DNA from: a virus
Length of the DNA: 64,000 nucleotides
Strand: one strand, 5' to 3'
IMG/VR virus record: IMGVR_UViG_3300036790_000231
Location: 27,256-91,255 of that record
How positions within the stretch are numbered: the stretch's first letter is position 1; each line of letters opens with the position of its first letter. The notes beneath the pieces are model-generated. The model was not told the DNA's origin. It searched no databases and worked only from the letters and a program-made list of their open reading frames with translations. Made by a program: the position numbers and the translations under genes. Shown here piece after piece: positions 9,866 through 62,800 of the stretch.

Positions 9866-10792
9866 TCATGTGGGAGAAATAACATTAAAAGAGAATGAGC
9901 AATTTTTCAATACGCCTATTTCCTTATAAATATAAACAACAAACAAACCTTTTTCAGTAAATGTAACGGCATGATAATCAACACCTGCCGCTCTTGGCGT
10001 GGCAACGGCTGAATAAAATTCTGTACTTTTTGCAGTATGCCAAGTAATTTTATAAATTCCAGTTGAAGTTTTTTCTGAGGTGAATTCATTTTCTTGTTCG
10101 CTTAAAATTTCGCCATTTTCTCCAATCACGCCAAAATATGAATATATGCTTCTAGCACCAAATTTTCTACGTACTGTTCCTTCACCTAGCTTTTCACCTG
10201 TAACAGCTCCATCCAAGATAGCTTCACCGTGTATTGATTCTCTTGCATATTTGCTATTAGCAAAAGTTCTTGCATCTTCTATATAATATGAGGACGAAGA
10301 AGATGCATTTTTAGGAACCAACACGCGAGCGCATCTGAAAGAACTTTGAGGCAATGCCGCAGCCCCTTTATATTCTCCATTTTCCATTTTTGTCTTAGTT
10401 GCTTCCGCAGTAGGAGTACCATTCAGCCATTCCAATTTGGCATAGCTAGAACCTCCAATTTTCAATTCATTTACATCATAAACTCTAAGAATAATTTGGG
10501 CTATTTGTGGATTGACAGAACTTACTTCTACATTGTTAGATGGTGTAGCTGATGTAGAATTTGGAATCTCATATAGTCCATTATAAAATGAATTAGATGA
10601 TTCTTGAATAGCATTAGTTTGAGCTACATAGGCATTCCCCTCATTTACGTTAACTTGAAGACCGGTTCCGGCAGTTACTTTATAATCATTTTCTTCGACT
10701 ACTCCTGCATTAACTAAAGTCTTTGCTATTAATCTATCCTGATAGGAAGGATAGAGAAGGTCTTCACAATCAGCAGGCAATAAAATAGACAT
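9866..10792 (-). CDS. minor tail / fiber-base protein
   Basis: GLQVNVNEGNAY...IILRVYD...GTP...LP pattern typical of actinophage minor tail proteins; DGAVTGEKL repeat. Confidence 0.7.
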   Translation of the reverse strand: MSILLPADCEDLLYPSYQDRLIAKTLVNAGVVEENDYKVTAGTGLQVNVNEGNAYVAQTNAIQESSNSFYNGLYEIPNSTSATPSNNVEVSSVNPQIAQIILRVYDVNELKIGGSSYAKLEWLNGTPTAEATKTKMENGEYKGAAALPQSSFRCARVLVPKNASSSSSYYIEDARTFANSKYARESIHGEAILDGAVTGEKLGEGTVRRKFGARSIYSYFGVIGENGEILSEQENEFTSEKTSTGIYKITWHTAKSTEFYSAVATPRAAGVDYHAVTFTEKGLFVVYIYKEIGVLKNCSFSFNVISPT

Positions 10793-22800: not shown

Positions 22801-24611
22801 AATTCAGCAGCTTTTACTTGCTCTTCGGCAGTTATAATTCCTGTTGTTTCACCTTTTTCAATAGAAATCTGCTCTTGTCTTCTAGCTTCAGCAAGAGAAA
22901 CAGATGCACCTTCAGCAGCTAGTCTTGCACTCTTTTCAGCAAAAACAAGATCGGTAATATTTTTAAGAGCTTGTTCACGCGCTTCAGTAAGAGCAATCTG
23001 TGAATCTCTTACTTGTAATTGCGCATCATTTAATTGTATATTAGAATTTACTAGCTGTTGATTAGCAGAAATAAGTGTAGATTGATTTTGTAATTCTTTA
23101 ATTTTCCCAGCATTAGGTTCAAAGTAGGCAGTTTTTTCTGCTTCGCTTTTAACTGATACTGCTTGGAAAATTGATTTGAATCTAAGTAAAGCCGCACCAG
23201 CAATCGATATCATCGGAATAAGCTGACCAACTCCTGAAATAAACGCTCCTCCAAGAGCTGCACCTGCCTCACTTGCAGCAGAAGCAACAGATATTAAACT
23301 TCCAACTAAGCTATCTACTCCAGTAACTAATTGCTGAGGGACTGCGGCAATAAAAACCTCTTTTACCCCTTGTACTGCTGAAGCTACGCCAGTAAGTCTA
23401 AATTTTAGAAAGTCTAAATGAGCACCAATCGCTTCAAATGTTTCTCCAAAATCTCCTCTTTTGAAAGACGCTACTATTCCACCAGTAGATTCAAGAAGAG
23501 CTTTGCGGGCAATCTTAGAAGCTTCCTCCGCTTTGGATCCCCATTTCAGTGCATCTTCTCCACCAAGCTCAAATTGCCTGCTTAATGAGCTAAAAGCTCT
23601 AGCAAAATCTTGTGCTCCCCGTTTAGCCTCATTCTCAGTTAATTGGCCAGATTTTAATTTAGAAAGCCATCTATCGTACGCACTGGTAATATCATTGATC
23701 TTTTGCTTTAATTCTGCATCATCAAAACTCTTACCAATATTAAATGACTCGCTTCTTAATCTCTCCGAATCAGCAATTAATCTACCATATTCCTCATGAA
23801 CTGGTCCAAGAGAATTAGCCAAACTTTTATATTCTCTACTAAAAGCATCTATATAATTTTTTTGCTCTTGCTGAGATTTTCCTGTTTGATCTAGGGTAGA
23901 TCTATAATTTTGAAGAGCCTGATCTAAATCCTTAATTGAATTAATTTGTTTTTGCGCATCAGTAGATAAAGAAATTGGTTGACGAGAAGATGGCTCTAAA
24001 GTTTGTAATGCTTTTGCAGAAGCGCGCGCCTGCTCGGCTAAATCTCTTAACTTAGTAGCTTCTTGACTGGCTATATCAAATCTTTTAGAAAGAGAATCAA
24101 GTGATCCCCCTAATGCAGTATATTCTCTACGTGCATCTCCTAAATCCTTATTACCACTTTTTATCTCTTGCCCAAGATTATCAAATCTATCAACAATTTC
24201 ATCAACTTTTTTATTTAAATCATCTGAGGCTCCGCCTGTTTTCTCAAACTCAGCAGCAGTTTCAGCCATTGCGTCTTGAACATCAGTAGTTTTTCTTCCA
24301 AGATTCTCATGAGAAGATGCCGTATCATCTACCGACTTCTTATGACGATCTAAACTACCAGTAGCATCATCTATATCTCTACCAAGATTACGAGCGGATT
24401 GGGATCCTCTAACTTGCTCTTCTCGTAATCTTCTAGCCTTTTCCTCAGCATCCTCAGATTTATCACCAAGCTTTTCAATATCTTTGGCAACACCCTCAGC
24501 ACTAGAAGTTCCAGTTAATCTATCTAACTCAGCTTTAAGCGCAGCTACTTTAGCACTTGCTTGATCTTTTGCGCGAAGAAGTATCTCAATTATGTAGTCA
24601 CTGTCGGCCAA
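16869..24611 (-). CDS. tape measure protein with NlpC/P60-like peptidase and SLT-like transglycosylase domains
   Basis: 2580 aa, helical and Ala/Gly-rich. PYVYGGGH..DCSG..HTFM peptidase motif; AESAGNP..GLYQI..NP..N..GLGAW transglycosylase motif. Confidence 0.92.
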   Translation of the reverse strand: MADSDYIIEILLRAKDQASAKVAALKAELDRLTGTSSAEGVAKDIEKLGDKSEDAEEKARRLREEQVRGSQSARNLGRDIDDATGSLDRHKKSVDDTASSHENLGRKTTDVQDAMAETAAEFEKTGGASDDLNKKVDEIVDRFDNLGQEIKSGNKDLGDARREYTALGGSLDSLSKRFDIASQEATKLRDLAEQARASAKALQTLEPSSRQPISLSTDAQKQINSIKDLDQALQNYRSTLDQTGKSQQEQKNYIDAFSREYKSLANSLGPVHEEYGRLIADSERLRSESFNIGKSFDDAELKQKINDITSAYDRWLSKLKSGQLTENEAKRGAQDFARAFSSLSRQFELGGEDALKWGSKAEEASKIARKALLESTGGIVASFKRGDFGETFEAIGAHLDFLKFRLTGVASAVQGVKEVFIAAVPQQLVTGVDSLVGSLISVASAASEAGAALGGAFISGVGQLIPMISIAGAALLRFKSIFQAVSVKSEAEKTAYFEPNAGKIKELQNQSTLISANQQLVNSNIQLNDAQLQVRDSQIALTEAREQALKNITDLVFAEKSARLAAEGASVSLAEARRQEQISIEKGETTGIITAEEQVKAAELAKKKADWEVPWAEREANIARRRGVEGARSVVSARQSLVSSHQAVTQAEQAHSAAARERQITLLQAAQPSSSETSQEAQYQQLLSQMSGPEKALVKVLSNLEKQLKSPDSPLKKITDYFIEPFEEAALKLESLLGSGSFLEPIDNLAQAMGSSLKKYKNEIFGEKGTSFFEEMSKDATDNLPIVTSAILHLMNLFQDIAKAADPAFKKMSEDWDNFWAKLDTKYSTPEGVNDLKEFFTGAVKYAEGFAHLGSSIGSLFLAIGHDAAPQGLKTVTTFSESVERATKWVESNGPKVTKFFREAREGLSLIGGVLLTLGKEFIEVFNLSNLGAFSTFLKVVLIPGLGNVVKIVGTLTNILLKFFNLFGAPGRILLEGFGTILAGIFVITKVMKYKSAVMGTIGVVKGLYSALKIMFEGGTGREAWEALTSAVTKNKQAIEETKVAQEALNDERVVGGAESAGGAGAVSTAEHDAGSSTESDLIAGGEGAVGAIGISAADLVGAVLVPVVVAGGVAYILDKSTANLGQTYSSQGIPTTGNFGDELGRDIHHAFSLSSLGDAVTGNYAGFAQNVFGEENSSESSLRKFGNLLQENKGKIQNLSNGALEEISLEATKLAHNPALHQWKKKLEELAKAYSPATRAAQLFSENTKKYFESLGPVTAKVSKSFESIKESTEFIFKQVKERVKTNIESIAEDLGLHSKQGKEALISNFGSAETAIDEAMRKGTVSTAKGMKEIKELVSEALSKYGISNTEIQGSRNQQYRHENFSEPNNASGGGVPEYMRASGGWMNASPGGHSYRVGEAGHDEIALTTDPRHASRQASLLDEYLSRAPAVRSMAEGGTVSALRAFHASFGGTHMARVLAAADLVSNMNLPYVYGGGHTEPARLGDGVDCSGGVSFVTQQGGYKVPTTVSGDIGSWGFPSGEGLVTIFFNGDHTFMRIGDRYWGTSGFARQKDNGGAGWFESSPSASYLAGFNAVHLPDVEGTKAWISAAKTLENHGQQLTDIGKGKGAASFISAVQASAGKGGGALGLLQQIVAPKVKGGALIGKVVQGALNTATGAANQFLEKLGESSGAGIETSSSAGGSYNRSRLENLWDKEGGPRGMARIMAAISLAESAGNPLAESPVSDEGSHAEGLYQIEMPMNAADVPGGNAKNPIANTIGAIKILASQGLGAWETFVSGDYLKFMASGGAVKRLKEFASGGRAPWGGSPVPIIAHEGERIMNPSQYSEAARLAGTSPSGLDSHMGFNSSSPRQHFADGGIPRVIGSSAQASSSSNAISSSIARFMPTLLEMNPNEQAEFSNIQKFFKSLSKAFKGIKKFSSESGKYDKYIEEFSNEIGAANGLLEKMKTGREKRTELSTSSNIQKVFSSKGKIVKRVIGEPGTEGLDIRTMEKESQDMKKELGKINQLKNETMSQVSHVETEKSSPKRTAALNNLRARYNKLIEEQDNLSKAMSENIENRYSDQTQQIQDQVSKLESSYNVISQEQTSQESTAQSKGQYGQVQVLNKQIAASANKQIQNLQKPLKEAEKIGNTEEVNTIKQSIASLNQTIATAAMERINALQSEVNQAYQETESGITSEQGIAQALGNFVKVKEMDQQIISTTTGYIVQLENVLHEAEREGESSRVASIKEEISGLKQIVTNAVVEQITSAKSQMEQESSSKQSEVSLLQSKSKIAAERGNNKEAGEYEQSALIMKQGDLESERIKLLELKQQAHSSGAISEEAHFIEEINKNTEQLEENRLALQNNTAATVELLVKGIEASGSFNKSIYSNLAQGIETVGKITGVTNVKALKSATEGEAGALGTERSQLEATASGVGLGKVAGMSSQEILTWFASSEGQQTIKGLESSAHTEKEKETMRSLVSQLETNSLATEQNTEKMAELNGHLNQPQSFSTTAWEQYRGAFFNGMGGMLPAYAASLPASMRPENMPVYGSAAPGASSSTMIENLNLTHPVEVADPQLFSEELSHQIGQSPTAP

Positions 24612-51953: not shown

Positions 51954-52331
51954 ATGAGTACAGATAACCTGGTAAAGCAGATCGATAGGCGATTGGAAAC
52001 AGTCACCAATAATATAACTGACTTGGTATTGAAGATTACTCCATTGGAGGAAGAAAAGGAAGCTTTGGATAACGCTCGCAAAGTTCTTTTGGGAGAAAGT
52101 CTTCAAGCACCAAAAAGGGAATATGCTCGTCTGCCCGATATGGCCGGATATATTCTTGACTATATCGACTCTAATCCCGGTCAAATTGGCTCAGCGATTG
52201 GACATGGATGCAAATTTATGAATACTCCCGCTGAATCAGGAAAGGTTTACAAAGTTCTTAATTCGCTATGTGCTGAACATAAGGTTACAAGGGATAGCAG
52301 TAAGAAATATTGGATAAGACAGCATGTCTAA
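51954..52331 (+). CDS. coiled-coil + winged-helix protein
   Basis: N-terminal heptads; ILDYIDSNPG...VYKVLNSL...KV.RD..KYW. Confidence 0.65.
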   Translation: MSTDNLVKQIDRRLETVTNNITDLVLKITPLEEEKEALDNARKVLLGESLQAPKREYARLPDMAGYILDYIDSNPGQIGSAIGHGCKFMNTPAESGKVYKVLNSLCAEHKVTRDSSKKYWIRQHV

Positions 52332-52490
52332 TAAGTAACCTGCTATGTTAAAAGTAGTAGCACAGATTGAACTAGAGGTAGAAACAATAAATTCCTTTAT
52401 TAATGAGACAGAATTAGAAGAACAACCTTGGGAAAAGTTAAAATTCTCAAAGTAAGGTAATGTGCTAAAGTAGGAAAAGATAGTATCAAA

Positions 52491-52568
52491 GCTCGCCTAA
52501 CCCCTCTGCTTTACAGGCAGTAGAAAGGGTAATTGGATTGCATCTAGGTTCGAGTCCTAGGGCGAGCA
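52491..52568 (+). ncRNA. atypical tRNA-like RNA (Val-TAC-like hairpin, rearranged lower half)
   Basis: Perfect acceptor GCTCGCC/GGCGAGC+A and T arm CTAGG-TTCGAGT-CCTAG, but non-canonical D and anticodon regions. Confidence 0.7.
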
Positions 52569-52627
52569 TTGGGGGTTTCCTAGCGGTGAGTCTGCCTCCT
52601 GCTTGCCGATCGGGCCGCTAGGAGCGC

Positions 52628-52698
52628 GCTGTTATAGCTCAATGGTAGAGCGCCTGTCTTGTAAACAGGTGATTCTGATTCGACTTCAGATAACAGCT
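52628..52698 (+). tRNA. tRNA-Thr(TGT)
   Basis: GCTGTTA/TAACAGC; GCTC-AATGGTA-GAGC; CCTGT-CT TGT AA-ACAGG; TCTGA-TTCGACT-TCAGA. Confidence 0.92.
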
Positions 52699-52860
52699 TT
52701 TTGGAGTATAGGCAAGGATTCGACGCAGTCTGGTCACCCGTAATTCTCAGAGAGCCTTTCTCCAAAGTTGGATTCGCAAAGGTATATTTATATGACTAGG
52801 TAATTTTACCAGCCTTGAATCTAATTCCAATGAGATTAGTCAGTCTGCGATTGGAAACTA

Positions 52861-52932
52861 CCGGCTGTAGAATAATGGTAATTCCCCACACTCATAATGT
52901 GCAAGATTCTGGTTCGAATCCAGGCGGCCGGA
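52861..52932 (+). tRNA. tRNA with CAT anticodon (Met or Ile2)
   Basis: CCGGCTG/CGGCCGG; CACA-CT CAT AA-TGTG; CTGG-TTCGAAT-CCAG. Confidence 0.85.
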
Positions 52933-53058
52933 TGAAGGGAGCCCACAAGATCAGCTATCTTCTGGCAATAAGAGAAAAGGAACATTCTCGAATAAGACAC
53001 GGCCGATAGGTCTACCCTTCTAATTTTTATTTCCACCACTCGAAATTCTAGATTAAAT

Positions 53059-53450
53059 ATGAAATTAATCAAGTTAAATATATATGAATATAGAATACAA
53101 GGATTAGATAAGGGTTCCAATCTTTGGAGCCATCCAACATATGATTTGTGCGAAGCTCAAAAGAAGAAGTCATTATTGGAAATAGAGTTCGAAAATATAT
53201 TAGAATCTACTTGGATAGAGAGAAGAAATAAGTTTGGATGGAAATGGAGAAAGATATGAAGATGAATGAATTTTCAAATGAGTATAGGGCATGCGCTAGT
53301 GATAAGGGAGATTTGTCTAGTGATTATGGTAAGGTACGAGAAACATATTTGGAAGCACAAAGAGATTTATCTTTAATGGGACAAGCAAAACCTTCATATG
53401 ATGAATTCTTCATTGAGAAGAGATGTGTTTCAGATTGGGAAAGAATGTAA
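53059..53450 (+). other. two small hypothetical CDS (53059-53259, ~53256-53450)
   Basis: Coupled ORFs. Confidence 0.45.
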
Positions 53451-53712
53451 TGAGTCATTTAAGAGGAATGGCTCTTGCATCATTATTACGTGAGGCTGCT
53501 GAGGATGCAGAAAATAGTTCTATAACTAATGACACAATGATAGAAGGTCTTTCAACTATAAGATTAATAATTTTCAATCAACTATAAGATTAATAATTTT
53601 CAAGGTTCATAGTAAGAAGAATGCATTAAATATAATAAATGAAATTGTAGGTGAGGCTCTTTACGGAAATTTTCCAGGAACAATTGAGAAGTATAATAGA
53701 AGGTATAAATAG
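53450..53712 (+). pseudogene. small gene frameshifted by a 26-bp tandem duplication
   Basis: TCAACTATAAGATTAATAATTTTCAA twice (53552-53603). Removing one copy restores a 78-aa ORF. Confidence 0.65.
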
Positions 53713-53718
53713 ATATAA

Positions 53719-53790
53719 GCCCTTGTGGTCCAACGGATAAGACGACAAACTTCTAATTTGTAAATCAAAGTTCGATTCTTTGCAGGGGCA
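53719..53790 (+). tRNA. tRNA-Arg(TCT)
   Basis: GCCCTTG/CAGGGGC; ACAAA-CT TCT AA-TTTGT; CAAAG-TTCGATT-CTTTG. Confidence 0.92.
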
Positions 53791-53892
53791 CTAGGGAGAT
53801 GGAGATATCCGTGAGGAATCTTAGATAAATTGGCGAAAATGTCGTTATACCAATTTATTGGCTGGAATCTCCCTTTCAATTTCTTCTGGCCA

Positions 53893-54054
53893 CCACTAGT
53901 GTGAGGCTAGCACAAATAGGTAACAAGATAAAGCGAAATTCTGTATCTAATGCGATGCGTATGTCCTTAAAGATTAATTTCTTTTTGGTTAACGGATACA
54001 GAGGCGGTCAGAAGAAAGCAAATTTCAAATCATCGACCACTCCTCACTTAGTGG
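53893..54054 (+). ncRNA. candidate ~160-nt structured RNA
   Basis: Closing stem CCACTAGTGTGAGG/CCTCACTTAGTGG, inner stem TCTGTATC/GATACAGA; no ORF. Confidence 0.5.
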
Positions 54055-61788: not shown

Positions 61789-61828
61789 GCTATCCCCCAC
61801 AAGGGGGTAGATGTGCTACAGTAGGTGA

Positions 61829-62800
61829 ATGCCGCCTGCTGATCGCAACAACCCTGTACGTGGCCGCGCTGGCGGCACCGATTCGCGTTACTCCCTGATG
61901 GAGTTCATGCGGGATTACCCCGACGACGCAACATGTCTTGAGTTCCTTTGGCGCGAGCGCTACGCGCCGGACGGCCATCACATGCAATGCCCGAAATGTG
62001 CTCGTGAAAGAAAGTTTCATCGCGTAAAGAATCGCCCATGCTACGACTGCGATACCTGCGGATATCATTTGCATCCTCTTGCGGGAACAATCTTTGAGAA
62101 ATCATCGACTTCTTTGCAGCTTTGGTTTTATGCGATCTTTCTTATGGTAAGCACTCGTTGCGGGATCTCCGCCAAGCAGCTTGAGCGTGAGTTAGGTGTG
62201 ACTTACAAGACTGCTTGGAGAATGTTCAATAAGATCCGCAATGATTTGATGATTGAAGATGATGAGAAACTTCGCGGAGACGTCGAGATAGATGAGGCTT
62301 CCGTTGATGGCAAGCCCAGAAAGAGGCCTGGTGATTCTGGTCAAATTGCCCTTGGGCCTTCTCGGCGCTCTGAGGCAGCGAAATTGCGCGAACATAGTAG
62401 AGCGACGGTATTTGCGGCTGTAGAACGTGGAGGGTGCGTAAAGGCGACTGTACTTCCTTCGCGGCGCGGCCCTGCGCTGAAGAAGCAGGTCATCGAGTGG
62501 GTCGAACCGCAATCGATCGTGATTACCGATGAGTGGCCAGCGTACAACGGCTTGAACCGGCACTTCATCGACCATAGTCGAATCAATCATTCAACAGGTA
62601 TATATGTTGAAGGTGATACCCATACGAATACCATTGAGGGATTCTTCGGCCACGTCAAGCCGTCGATCAGAGGCACCTATCGCAAGGTGTCGCACAAGTG
62701 GTTGCAGGGCTACTTGAACGAGTTCACGTTCCGCTACAACCATCGCGACGACAATCGCGCGATGTTCGAGACGCTACTTCTGCGTGCTGCTGGGAGCTAG
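61829..62800 (+). CDS. IS1595-family (ISXO2-like DDE) transposase
   Basis: CPKC..CDTC zinc ribbon, GISAKQLERELGVTYKTAW HTH, VEIDE, ITDEW..Y, HTNTIEGFF and YLNEFTFRYN. Confidence 0.95.
   Translation: MPPADRNNPVRGRAGGTDSRYSLMEFMRDYPDDATCLEFLWRERYAPDGHHMQCPKCARERKFHRVKNRPCYDCDTCGYHLHPLAGTIFEKSSTSLQLWFYAIFLMVSTRCGISAKQLERELGVTYKTAWRMFNKIRNDLMIEDDEKLRGDVEIDEASVDGKPRKRPGDSGQIALGPSRRSEAAKLREHSRATVFAAVERGGCVKATVLPSRRGPALKKQVIEWVEPQSIVITDEWPAYNGLNRHFIDHSRINHSTGIYVEGDTHTNTIEGFFGHVKPSIRGTYRKVSHKWLQGYLNEFTFRYNHRDDNRAMFETLLLRAAGS

Follow-up and report, generated by a model that had tools for sequence, protein, structure and literature searches.

In the circularly permuted tRNA genes of Cyanidioschyzon merolae (PMC3978253), the segments of transfer RNA (tRNA) do not follow the textbook order, in that the 3' half precedes the 5' half and processing restores a normal tRNA. 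Non-circular permutation, in turn, is stated by Eckert et al. (2023; PMC10085705) not to have been known in any natural RNA before their hammerhead ribozymes, whose elements come in a non-circular order while their three-dimensional arrangement is presumably kept. Here we describe a tRNA-like gene of 78 nucleotides (nt), at positions 52491-52568 on the plus strand of a 64,000-nt stretch of phage DNA (positions 27,256 to 91,255 of IMG/VR record IMGVR_UViG_3300036790_000231, a 91-kb phage record from a soil metagenome, estimated to be 98% complete and with 38% GC; the whole stretch is hereafter called the window). Its D-arm block, corresponding to positions 10-21, appears to have been moved behind the anticodon arm, and we refer to it and to its homologs as rewired tRNAs. 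Unlike that of the C. merolae genes, the swap is internal and non-circular, both acceptor strands stay in place, and we infer that the mature RNA keeps the swap; the hammerheads, for their part, are a different RNA class, and no tRNAs are reported in PMC10085705.

In most respects the element resembles canonical tRNA-Val(UAC) and tRNA-Ile (RF00005), with which it shares an acceptor stem of 7 base pairs (bp), A73, U8, A14, G18 G19, a T arm with UUCRA, a 7-nt anticodon loop with U33 and A37, a 4-bp D stem, a similar length and a likely role, in that the rewired form replaces the cloverleaf isoacceptor in phage tRNA arrays. What differs is the position of the 10-21 block after the anticodon arm, which gives a three-way junction with one long bulged arm and not a four-way cloverleaf. 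A three-way junction with no D hairpin between acceptor and anticodon stems is found also in D-armless mitochondrial tRNAs, such as metazoan tRNA-Ser(AGY) (PMC4013460, PMC9427863); these, however, have lost the D stem and the contacts of G18 G19 with the T loop, whereas the rewired class keeps all D-arm elements, reordered, and its setting is bacterial-type translation and not that of mitochondria. The valylatable tRNA-like structure of turnip yellow mosaic virus (TYMV) and the YrlA RNAs of bacteria and phages (PMC11472068) are likewise tRNA-shaped with a backbone topology unlike that of tRNA, and the former is specific for valine. Both are non-decoding mimics, however, and the TYMV acceptor is a pseudoknot, whereas the element has a standard acceptor stem and an anticodon loop; an Rfam search of the element, moreover, gave no match to YrlA or to transfer-messenger RNA (tmRNA).

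A canonical tRNA runs through its core in the order 8-9, 10-21, 22-47, 48, and our comparison of homologs supports a swap of the two middle blocks in the element, which on the basis of its sequence would read 8-9, 22-47, 10-21, 48, an order conserved with covariation in its class. An earlier, sequence-only reading of the locus had named a canonical acceptor stem (7/7 pairs), T8A9, discriminator A and T arm, and an ACCC/GGGT stem around a Val-type anticodon hairpin. All of these parts could be read directly (Table 1), and the ACCC/GGGT stem is also present in the minimum free energy (MFE) fold (-30.2 kcal/mol, z -2.66), which equals the structure described here but closes the anticodon loop to 3-5 nt. 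The ACCC strand adjoins A9 directly and runs on, over a single C, into the anticodon stem; the anticodon arm thus lies between the two strands of the D stem, and the D loop, with its D-loop-like AAUUGG, comes only after them. Of the features that mark a canonical tRNA, then, the element has the 7-bp acceptor stem with its unpaired A73, the T arm, and the 7-nt anticodon loop with U33 and a purine at 37, but neither a D hairpin between position 9 and the anticodon arm nor a score at the RF00005 cut-off or a call by a tRNA finder. ARAGORN, which the earlier reading had proposed to run, left it uncalled under default, -ps80/-ps90, -mt and -i settings while calling five other tRNAs in the window, and Rfam searches at gathering cut-offs and at E<=10 returned no RF00005 match for it.

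A homolog was found by way of the FtsK-like gene that lies 2.9 kb downstream of the element and has phage-type relatives. Eighty loci were fetched with an alignment of FtsK-like relatives (A1) and scanned structurally for tRNA top halves uncalled by ARAGORN, and the best of these loci (L002), with an FtsK-like protein 48% identical to that of the window, carries one clear homolog at L002:8663-8738, 1.3 kb upstream of the FtsK-like gene. A closer FtsK relative, with 81% FtsK identity, is P0002, encoded on a Logan contig. The L002 homolog aligns with the element over its whole length, with the same order of parts and compensatory changes in all four helices: ACCC/GGGT becomes ACTC/GAGT, CTGC/GCAG becomes CTGG/CCAG, and the two genes differ along the whole length of the acceptor and T stems. 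The earlier reading had named a normal tRNA-Val at this place in related phages as evidence against itself; what this relative has is the same rearrangement. The residues common to both genes (CCTCTG, 9 N, CAGT, N, GAAAG, N, GT) were then used as a pattern to scan IMG/VR, which returned 108 stretches, all but a handful with the full architecture, and 112 copies with 63 distinct sequences.

Members of this class sit within phage tRNA arrays at ordinary tRNA spacing and run in the order acceptor, UA, 22-25 strand, 26, anticodon arm, NGAAA, 10-13 strand, A14...G18G19...A21, 48, T arm; the element aligns column for column, and in the same segment order, with 65 other members. None of the members was called by ARAGORN at default settings, and in seven loci scanned with Rfam only two of nine copies reached the tRNA cut-off, and barely so, while the neighbouring tRNAs were called. 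GenBank carriers include crAss-like phages, among them the cultured Kehishuvirus 'tikkala', and about 77 cultured Streptomyces phages (Jay2Jay, Mildred21, NootNoot and others), and with one exception no annotated feature lies beneath the GenBank matches. Eleven more copies were found in contigs binned into bacterial metagenome-assembled genomes (MAGs). This is, in fact, a large class of phage tRNAs that tRNA finders and genome annotations miss, and a full-text literature search returned no description of such rewired tRNAs. A covariance model (R1), built from an alignment of 66 members (A3), scores members at about 70-99 bits, including 79.6 bits (E 2.5e-19) for the element, a value which is partly circular, the element being in the seed. 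On cloverleaf tRNAs, R1 gives at most 24 bits in the FtsK-relative loci and in this genome, with a few at 33-35 bits in the array loci, and on other matches in this genome at most 17.8 bits; the same separation from cloverleaf tRNAs is seen for the L002 copy and about 100 others.

The swapped order of D loop and anticodon arm, which the sequence-only reading had put forward together with a check for covariation, is upheld by that check: among the 66 sequences of A3, 17 of 22 pairs change on both sides, with a score of 0.624 compared to 0.163 for shuffled and at most 0.145 for slid alignments, even though the search pattern fixed parts of the D stem, the anticodon stem and GAAA, so that these columns cannot vary and the covariation rests on the others. 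In members found by BLAST or by the model, the D- and anticodon-stem columns do vary with compensation (TCACT/AGTGT in Jay2Jay, TCACG/CGTGT in L106), and the GAAA bulge is also present in Jay2Jay, a BLAST match, and in L106:5765, a match of the model. Across the class, the middle pair of ACCC/GGGU is seen in all four Watson-Crick types, and the non-Watson-Crick U27.U43 pair of the element recurs in nearly all members. The class also keeps G10-C25, A14 directly after 13, R15, G18 G19, an A21-like A, U8 and the T-loop UUC...A, with A14 and G19 invariant and G18 a G in 65 of 66 members. Covariation also links the base that follows A14 to the one before the T stem (alignment columns 42/54: A-U in 37, G-C in 16, and other combinations, mostly G.G, in 13), as would be expected of a 15-48 Levitt pair. 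When the blocks were swapped back in silico, ARAGORN called 62 of 62 sequences with the expected anticodon, the element as tRNA-Val(tac), compared to none of the 62 in native form and 18 of 62 with the moved block reversed.

In the fold that we propose, the D stem (GGGU with ACCC) would form and be continuous with the anticodon stem as a single bulged hairpin, the D loop (A14, R15, G18 G19) would follow this hairpin and lead through the equivalent of position 48 into the T stem, and U8-A14, 15-48 and the contacts of G18/G19 with the T loop would rebuild the normal L shape. Strands 39-44 and 10-13 of a cloverleaf tRNA already lie coaxially on either side of a nick. Short links would seem to suffice for joining them through the GAAA bulge, and for joining 21 to 48. 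Numbering the D stem the other way round, with its 5' strand as 10-13, fits C11-G24 preferences but was rejected, as the anticodon arm would then be stacked on the D stem at its wrong end. Since swapping back yields a perfect cloverleaf, and gene-level permutations resolved by processing are known in Cyanidioschyzon (PMC3978253), it could be asked whether the transcript is cut and rejoined into canonical order, the mature tRNA being an ordinary cloverleaf. A non-circular swap, however, would need two cuts and two ligations, and no bulge-helix-bulge motifs were seen here. The conserved GAAA bulge, and the equivalent of position 48 covarying with R15 after the D loop, make sense only in an RNA that stays unrearranged. 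We know of no bacterial pathway for such a double cut-and-ligate reordering, and overall we regard rejoining as extremely improbable.

Whether such an RNA takes part in translation can be judged from its anticodon arm. All of the 63 distinct copies that were tabulated have U33 and A37, and the anticodons of the class (UAU, GAU, CAU, ACG, UCU, CCU and UAC) correspond to Ile, Met, Arg and Val only; a pattern scan for G or U at anticodon position 35 gave three matches, with only one weak and doubtful candidate among them (26 bits). The eight members with Arg anticodons all have A20, a determinant of arginyl-tRNA synthetase, and mostly G73, while U20 is found in 53 of 54 Ile/Met members and A73 in all of them. 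Because identity elements follow the anticodon and U33/A37 do not vary, the anticodon arm appears to be selected as a decoding arm, contrary to the earlier suggestion that no such arm is under selection. In arrays with at least 15 cloverleaf tRNAs, furthermore, a cloverleaf tRNA with anticodon GAT is present in none of the 30 that carry a rewired GAT but in 15 of 16 that do not, and one with TAT in none of the 20 that carry a rewired TAT but in 20 of 26 that do not. The slot flanked by tRNA-Trp and tRNA-Met is taken by a cloverleaf tRNA-Ile(GAT) in crAss001 and by a rewired one in 'tikkala' and L096. Mutual exclusion and replacement in the same slot are thus what working isoacceptors would show, and do not fit decoys or relics.

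These data bear directly on the decoy for anticodon nucleases that the sequence-only reading had proposed. In its wider form, the proposal is that the RNA is processed, and perhaps charged, but is a non-decoding tRNA mimic, which would act as a decoy or sponge for anticodon nucleases of the host or for other defences directed at tRNA. The failure of tRNA finders to recognise the element would suit a mimic, as would a rewiring without established adaptive reason, but a decoy should coexist with the tRNA that it protects, and the cloverleaf isoacceptor is absent instead (0/30 and 0/20), the rewired form stands in the cloverleaf slot of related crAss-like phages, and U33, A37 and A20 go with the anticodon just as they do in working tRNAs. 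We therefore consider a mimic unlikely. The same reading had offered the divergent LysRS-like gene of the phage (window 39397-40638) as a partner of the RNA. A homolog of this gene does occur in the record behind L002, the one close relative, but four other carriers lack it and no member of the class has a Lys anticodon; the gene, therefore, follows the phage lineage and not the RNA class, and the partnership can be set aside.

For the element itself, the reading that we prefer is that of a working elongator tRNA, probably the tRNA-Val(UAC) of the rewired class. A35, C36 and A73 are the main determinants of valyl-tRNA synthetase (ValRS), whereas isoleucyl-tRNA synthetase (IleRS) needs U36. Predicted from its sequence to be processed, charged and used in decoding, the RNA would then be accepted by RNase P, the CCA-adding enzyme, ValRS (reading A35, C36 and A73), EF-Tu and the ribosome. 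The 91-kb genome has five cloverleaf tRNAs by ARAGORN, for Leu, Gln, Thr, Met and Arg, with none for Val and none with the anticodon of the element. Its four other elongator tRNAs all have U34 (UAA, UUG, UGU and UCU) and read A-ending codons, and GTA makes up 37% of its Val codons; the rewired tRNA would supply this AT-rich phage with a GUA decoder beside its other U34 tRNAs. Two further distinct rewired UAC sequences were found in tRNA arrays from other metagenomes, namely L204 (identical in L211) and L214. These Val-type members share U32 with the element and have compensatory stems of their own, and no cloverleaf tRNA-Val is present in the short loci that were fetched. A scan of IMG/VR with a Val-type pattern gave one match, which was rejected as a chance match, lying inside a coding sequence without acceptor or T arm.

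Besides the columns held constant by the search pattern, several points weigh against the assignment as a decoding tRNA-Val. The normal L-shaped fold and the position numbering are ones that we infer, and the element is atypical of its class, in that U32 and G38 can pair, which in the MFE fold shrinks the loop, its D-loop segment is 1 to 3 nt longer than that of other members (typically 1), and A46 takes the place of the usual G46. The anticodon of the nearest relative, that of L002, is UAU, one transition from UAC, so that the Val identity may be recent, and only two other distinct Val-type sequences were found. A search of sequencing runs, finally, listed one soil-metagenome DNA run as sole holder of this DNA and no RNA run. 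Some of these points would also be explained if the class were functional but this copy decaying or recently disabled, that is, an Ile(UAU) tRNA altered by a U36C transition and by further drift: UAU is the anticodon of the nearest relative, it is unusual in this class to have G38 opposite U32 or an insertion in the D-loop segment, and the loop is closed in the MFE fold. All helices are intact, however (7/7, 4/4 and 5/5), the R1 score falls in the range of other members, U32 is common to independent Val-type members, and UAC matches the heavy use of GTA and the U34-only tRNA set, all of which makes decay, in our view, improbable. Charging with an amino acid other than valine, be it by IleRS in spite of C36 or by the divergent LysRS-like enzyme of the phage, for recoding or as a non-ribosomal amino-acid carrier, seems very unlikely. 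It could draw on the body of the RNA being nearest to an Ile-type member, and on the co-occurrence of the LysRS-like gene in the only close relative that carries the rewired tRNA of this lineage. The absence of that gene from four other carriers and of Lys anticodons from the class, and the identity rules given above for ValRS and IleRS, speak against such charging.

Table 1. Coordinates, within the window, of the rewired tRNA gene, its parts and a sequence upstream of it
Feature	Position	Strand	Evidence or remark
Whole gene: rewired (D-block-swapped) tRNA, anticodon UAC (Val), no encoded CCA	52491..52568	+	R1 79.6 bits, E 2.5e-19 (element in seed)
Acceptor stem 5' strand GCTCGCC (positions 1-7)	52491..52497	+	7/7 pairs with GGCGAGC 52561-52567; all 7 covary across the class
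U8 A9 (T8A9)	52498..52499	+	invariant in 66/66 aligned members
ACCC, D-stem strand, positions 22-25	52500..52503	+	pairs with GGGT 52527-52530; putative numbering
Anticodon arm, stem UCUGC/GCAGU (U27.U43 and 4 pairs), 7-nt loop UUUACAG	52505..52521	+	
Anticodon UAC (DNA TAC)	52512-52514	+	read directly in loop TTTACAG
AGAAA bulge (N44 and GAAA), from anticodon stem to second D-stem strand	52522..52526	+	class alignment
GGGU, D-stem strand, positions 10-13	52527..52530	+	pairs with ACCC
D-loop equivalent AAUUGGAUUGCA (DNA AATTGGATTGCA): A14, A15, G18 G19, A20 ... A21	52531..52542	+	
U, candidate position 48, Levitt partner of A15 (52532)	52543	+	alignment columns 42/54 covary
T arm CUAGG-UUCGAGU-CCUAG	52544..52560	+	canonical 5-bp stem, 7-nt loop; 4/5 pairs covary in the class
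Acceptor 3' strand GGCGAGC and discriminator A73	52561..52568	+	A73 at 52568
Possible -10 element TGTGCTAAAGT (gnTAnnnT type), 20 nt upstream of the gene	52461..52471	+	unproven

A chance origin of the element is excluded. With a strict top half defined as a 7-bp acceptor stem, a 5-bp T stem and TTCRANN, six were found in the window, namely the five called tRNAs and the element, against 0.22 per shuffled window. Besides a chance hairpin, several other identities were tried and rejected: an attP site or tRNA fragment (both acceptor strands are present); an intron-containing tRNA (ARAGORN -i finds nothing); a class II tRNA with a long variable arm (a D hairpin cannot be drawn); a tmRNA or YrlA mimic (no Rfam match, no tmRNA with ARAGORN -m, and an anticodon loop is present); a circularly permuted tRNA gene (the 5' acceptor strand opens the gene and the 3' one closes it, as is normal); and a D-armless mitochondrial-type tRNA (the ACCC/GGGU stem forms, A14 and G19 are invariant, and G18 is kept in 65/66). 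A separate assembly in Logan, probably of the same soil sample, is identical in sequence at the element, with a depth of about 23; this argues against an error peculiar to a single assembler, although the sample is not an independent one. A BLAST search of positions 52300-53900 against GenBank phages gave no match, exact-match scans for the top and bottom halves in IMG/VR found none, and locus searches with single neighbouring proteins returned no relatives.

The bases 3' of the gene are TTG and not CCA, so that CCA would have to be added after transcription, and by the host; no PF01743 (CCA-adding enzyme) domain was found in the phage genome. A GC-rich hairpin lies 3' of the rewired tRNA both in this phage and in that of L002, at window 52569-52627 (+) and at L002:8741-8812, neither being followed by a T run, and the window copy, with a fold z of 0.29, is no better than shuffles. 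Upstream of the gene, the sequence-only reading had placed an extended -10. The sequence TGTGCTAAAGT is indeed present at 52461-52471 on the plus strand, but its role as a promoter found no backing, as a sigma-70 scan reported no promoter at these positions and no significant enrichment of the motif GTGCTANNGT was seen (3 copies versus 0.71 expected, a count reached by 8 of 100 shuffles). The three copies of GTGCTA[A/C]AGT lie at window 61813-61822 (+), 24547-24556 (-) and 52462-52471 (+), and one of them ends 6 nt before an ATG at 61829, as might be expected if a -10 of the TAnnnT type gave rise to a leaderless transcript.

Other copies of the rewired tRNA and other unusual RNAs were seen along the way. 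An unannotated rewired tRNA-Ile(GAU) lies in Jay2Jay at L192:2498-2574 (NC_029098.1, about 75237-75313), between genes for a nucleotidyltransferase and an FtsK/SpoIIIE-like protein, and an FtsK-like neighbour is common to the element, the L002 copy and the Streptomyces phage copies. Two rewired Arg tRNAs (UCU and CCU) stand in tandem, 7 nt apart, at L149:10189-10265 and 10273-10349 (-), and on a 712-kb Actinomycetota MAG contig a rewired Ile(UAU) at L248:3245-3320 (+) abuts a cloverleaf Ile(GAU) with no spacer, in an array of 23 tRNAs. A divergent rewired subtype, with R1 scores of 38-50 bits, is represented by L241:4553-4629, L231:7210-7286, L256:4506-4582, L166:4361-4438 (-) and L097:5487-5565, with Ile GAU and Arg UCU/UCG anticodons; the bulge after its anticodon stem is not GAAA, and GAAAA or GAGAA adjoins the T stem. 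The phage of the window has a second tRNA-like gene, outside the window, at L195:953-1019 (+) in genome coordinates. It has 67 nt, with a 7-bp acceptor stem, a normal D arm (GGTC-GCCAGTGG-GACC) and a T arm, about 15 unstructured bases in place of the anticodon arm, an R1 score of only 17.8 bits and no DNA match in the relative G001. In another FtsK-relative phage, a 95-nt gene resembling tRNA-Ala(UGC), with a D-loop insertion of about 22 nt, lies uncalled by ARAGORN at L026:16003-16097 (-). The spacer after tRNA-Thr at window 52699-52860 (+) contains GGATTCGACG, which we take to resemble the 5' D-loop-like region of tmRNA; neither ARAGORN -m nor Rfam found a tmRNA in this spacer, and its fold is ordinary (z -0.66).

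A broader account of the class can be put forward as well, which we consider doubtful when all of its parts are taken together. According to it, the rewired RNAs would be ribosome-active non-cloverleaf tRNAs and the first natural non-circular permutation of tRNA, with a single origin and a spread among unrelated phage groups (crAss-like, Streptomyces and others), and with switches of anticodon confined to Ile, Met, Val and Arg. Such a restriction would follow if only class Ia synthetases tolerate the rewired core; in these enzymes, the variable-region side of the tRNA faces solvent. The advantage to the phage, in this account, would be escape from host nucleases directed at tRNA, or from other enzymes that read a normal D arm.

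Our findings have implications for genome annotation, in that standard tools miss these genes and the tRNA sets of phages, cultured crAss-like and Streptomyces phages among them, are undercounted; where a phage seems to lack a decoder for Ile, Arg or Val, one may exist as a rewired tRNA. They are also of relevance to the conflict of phage and host over tRNAs and to the design of orthogonal tRNAs, and the existence of cultured carriers (Streptomyces phage Jay2Jay and its relatives, and Kehishuvirus 'tikkala') makes the question directly testable. As for the structure and evolution of tRNA, the only natural non-circular RNA permutation that we found on record is that of the hammerhead ribozymes (PMC10085705). 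Should these RNAs prove to be charged and to decode, the cloverleaf would not be obligatory for bacterial-type translation, and the L-shaped core could be threaded in another order and yet be accepted by RNase P, the CCA-adding enzyme, a synthetase, EF-Tu and the ribosome.

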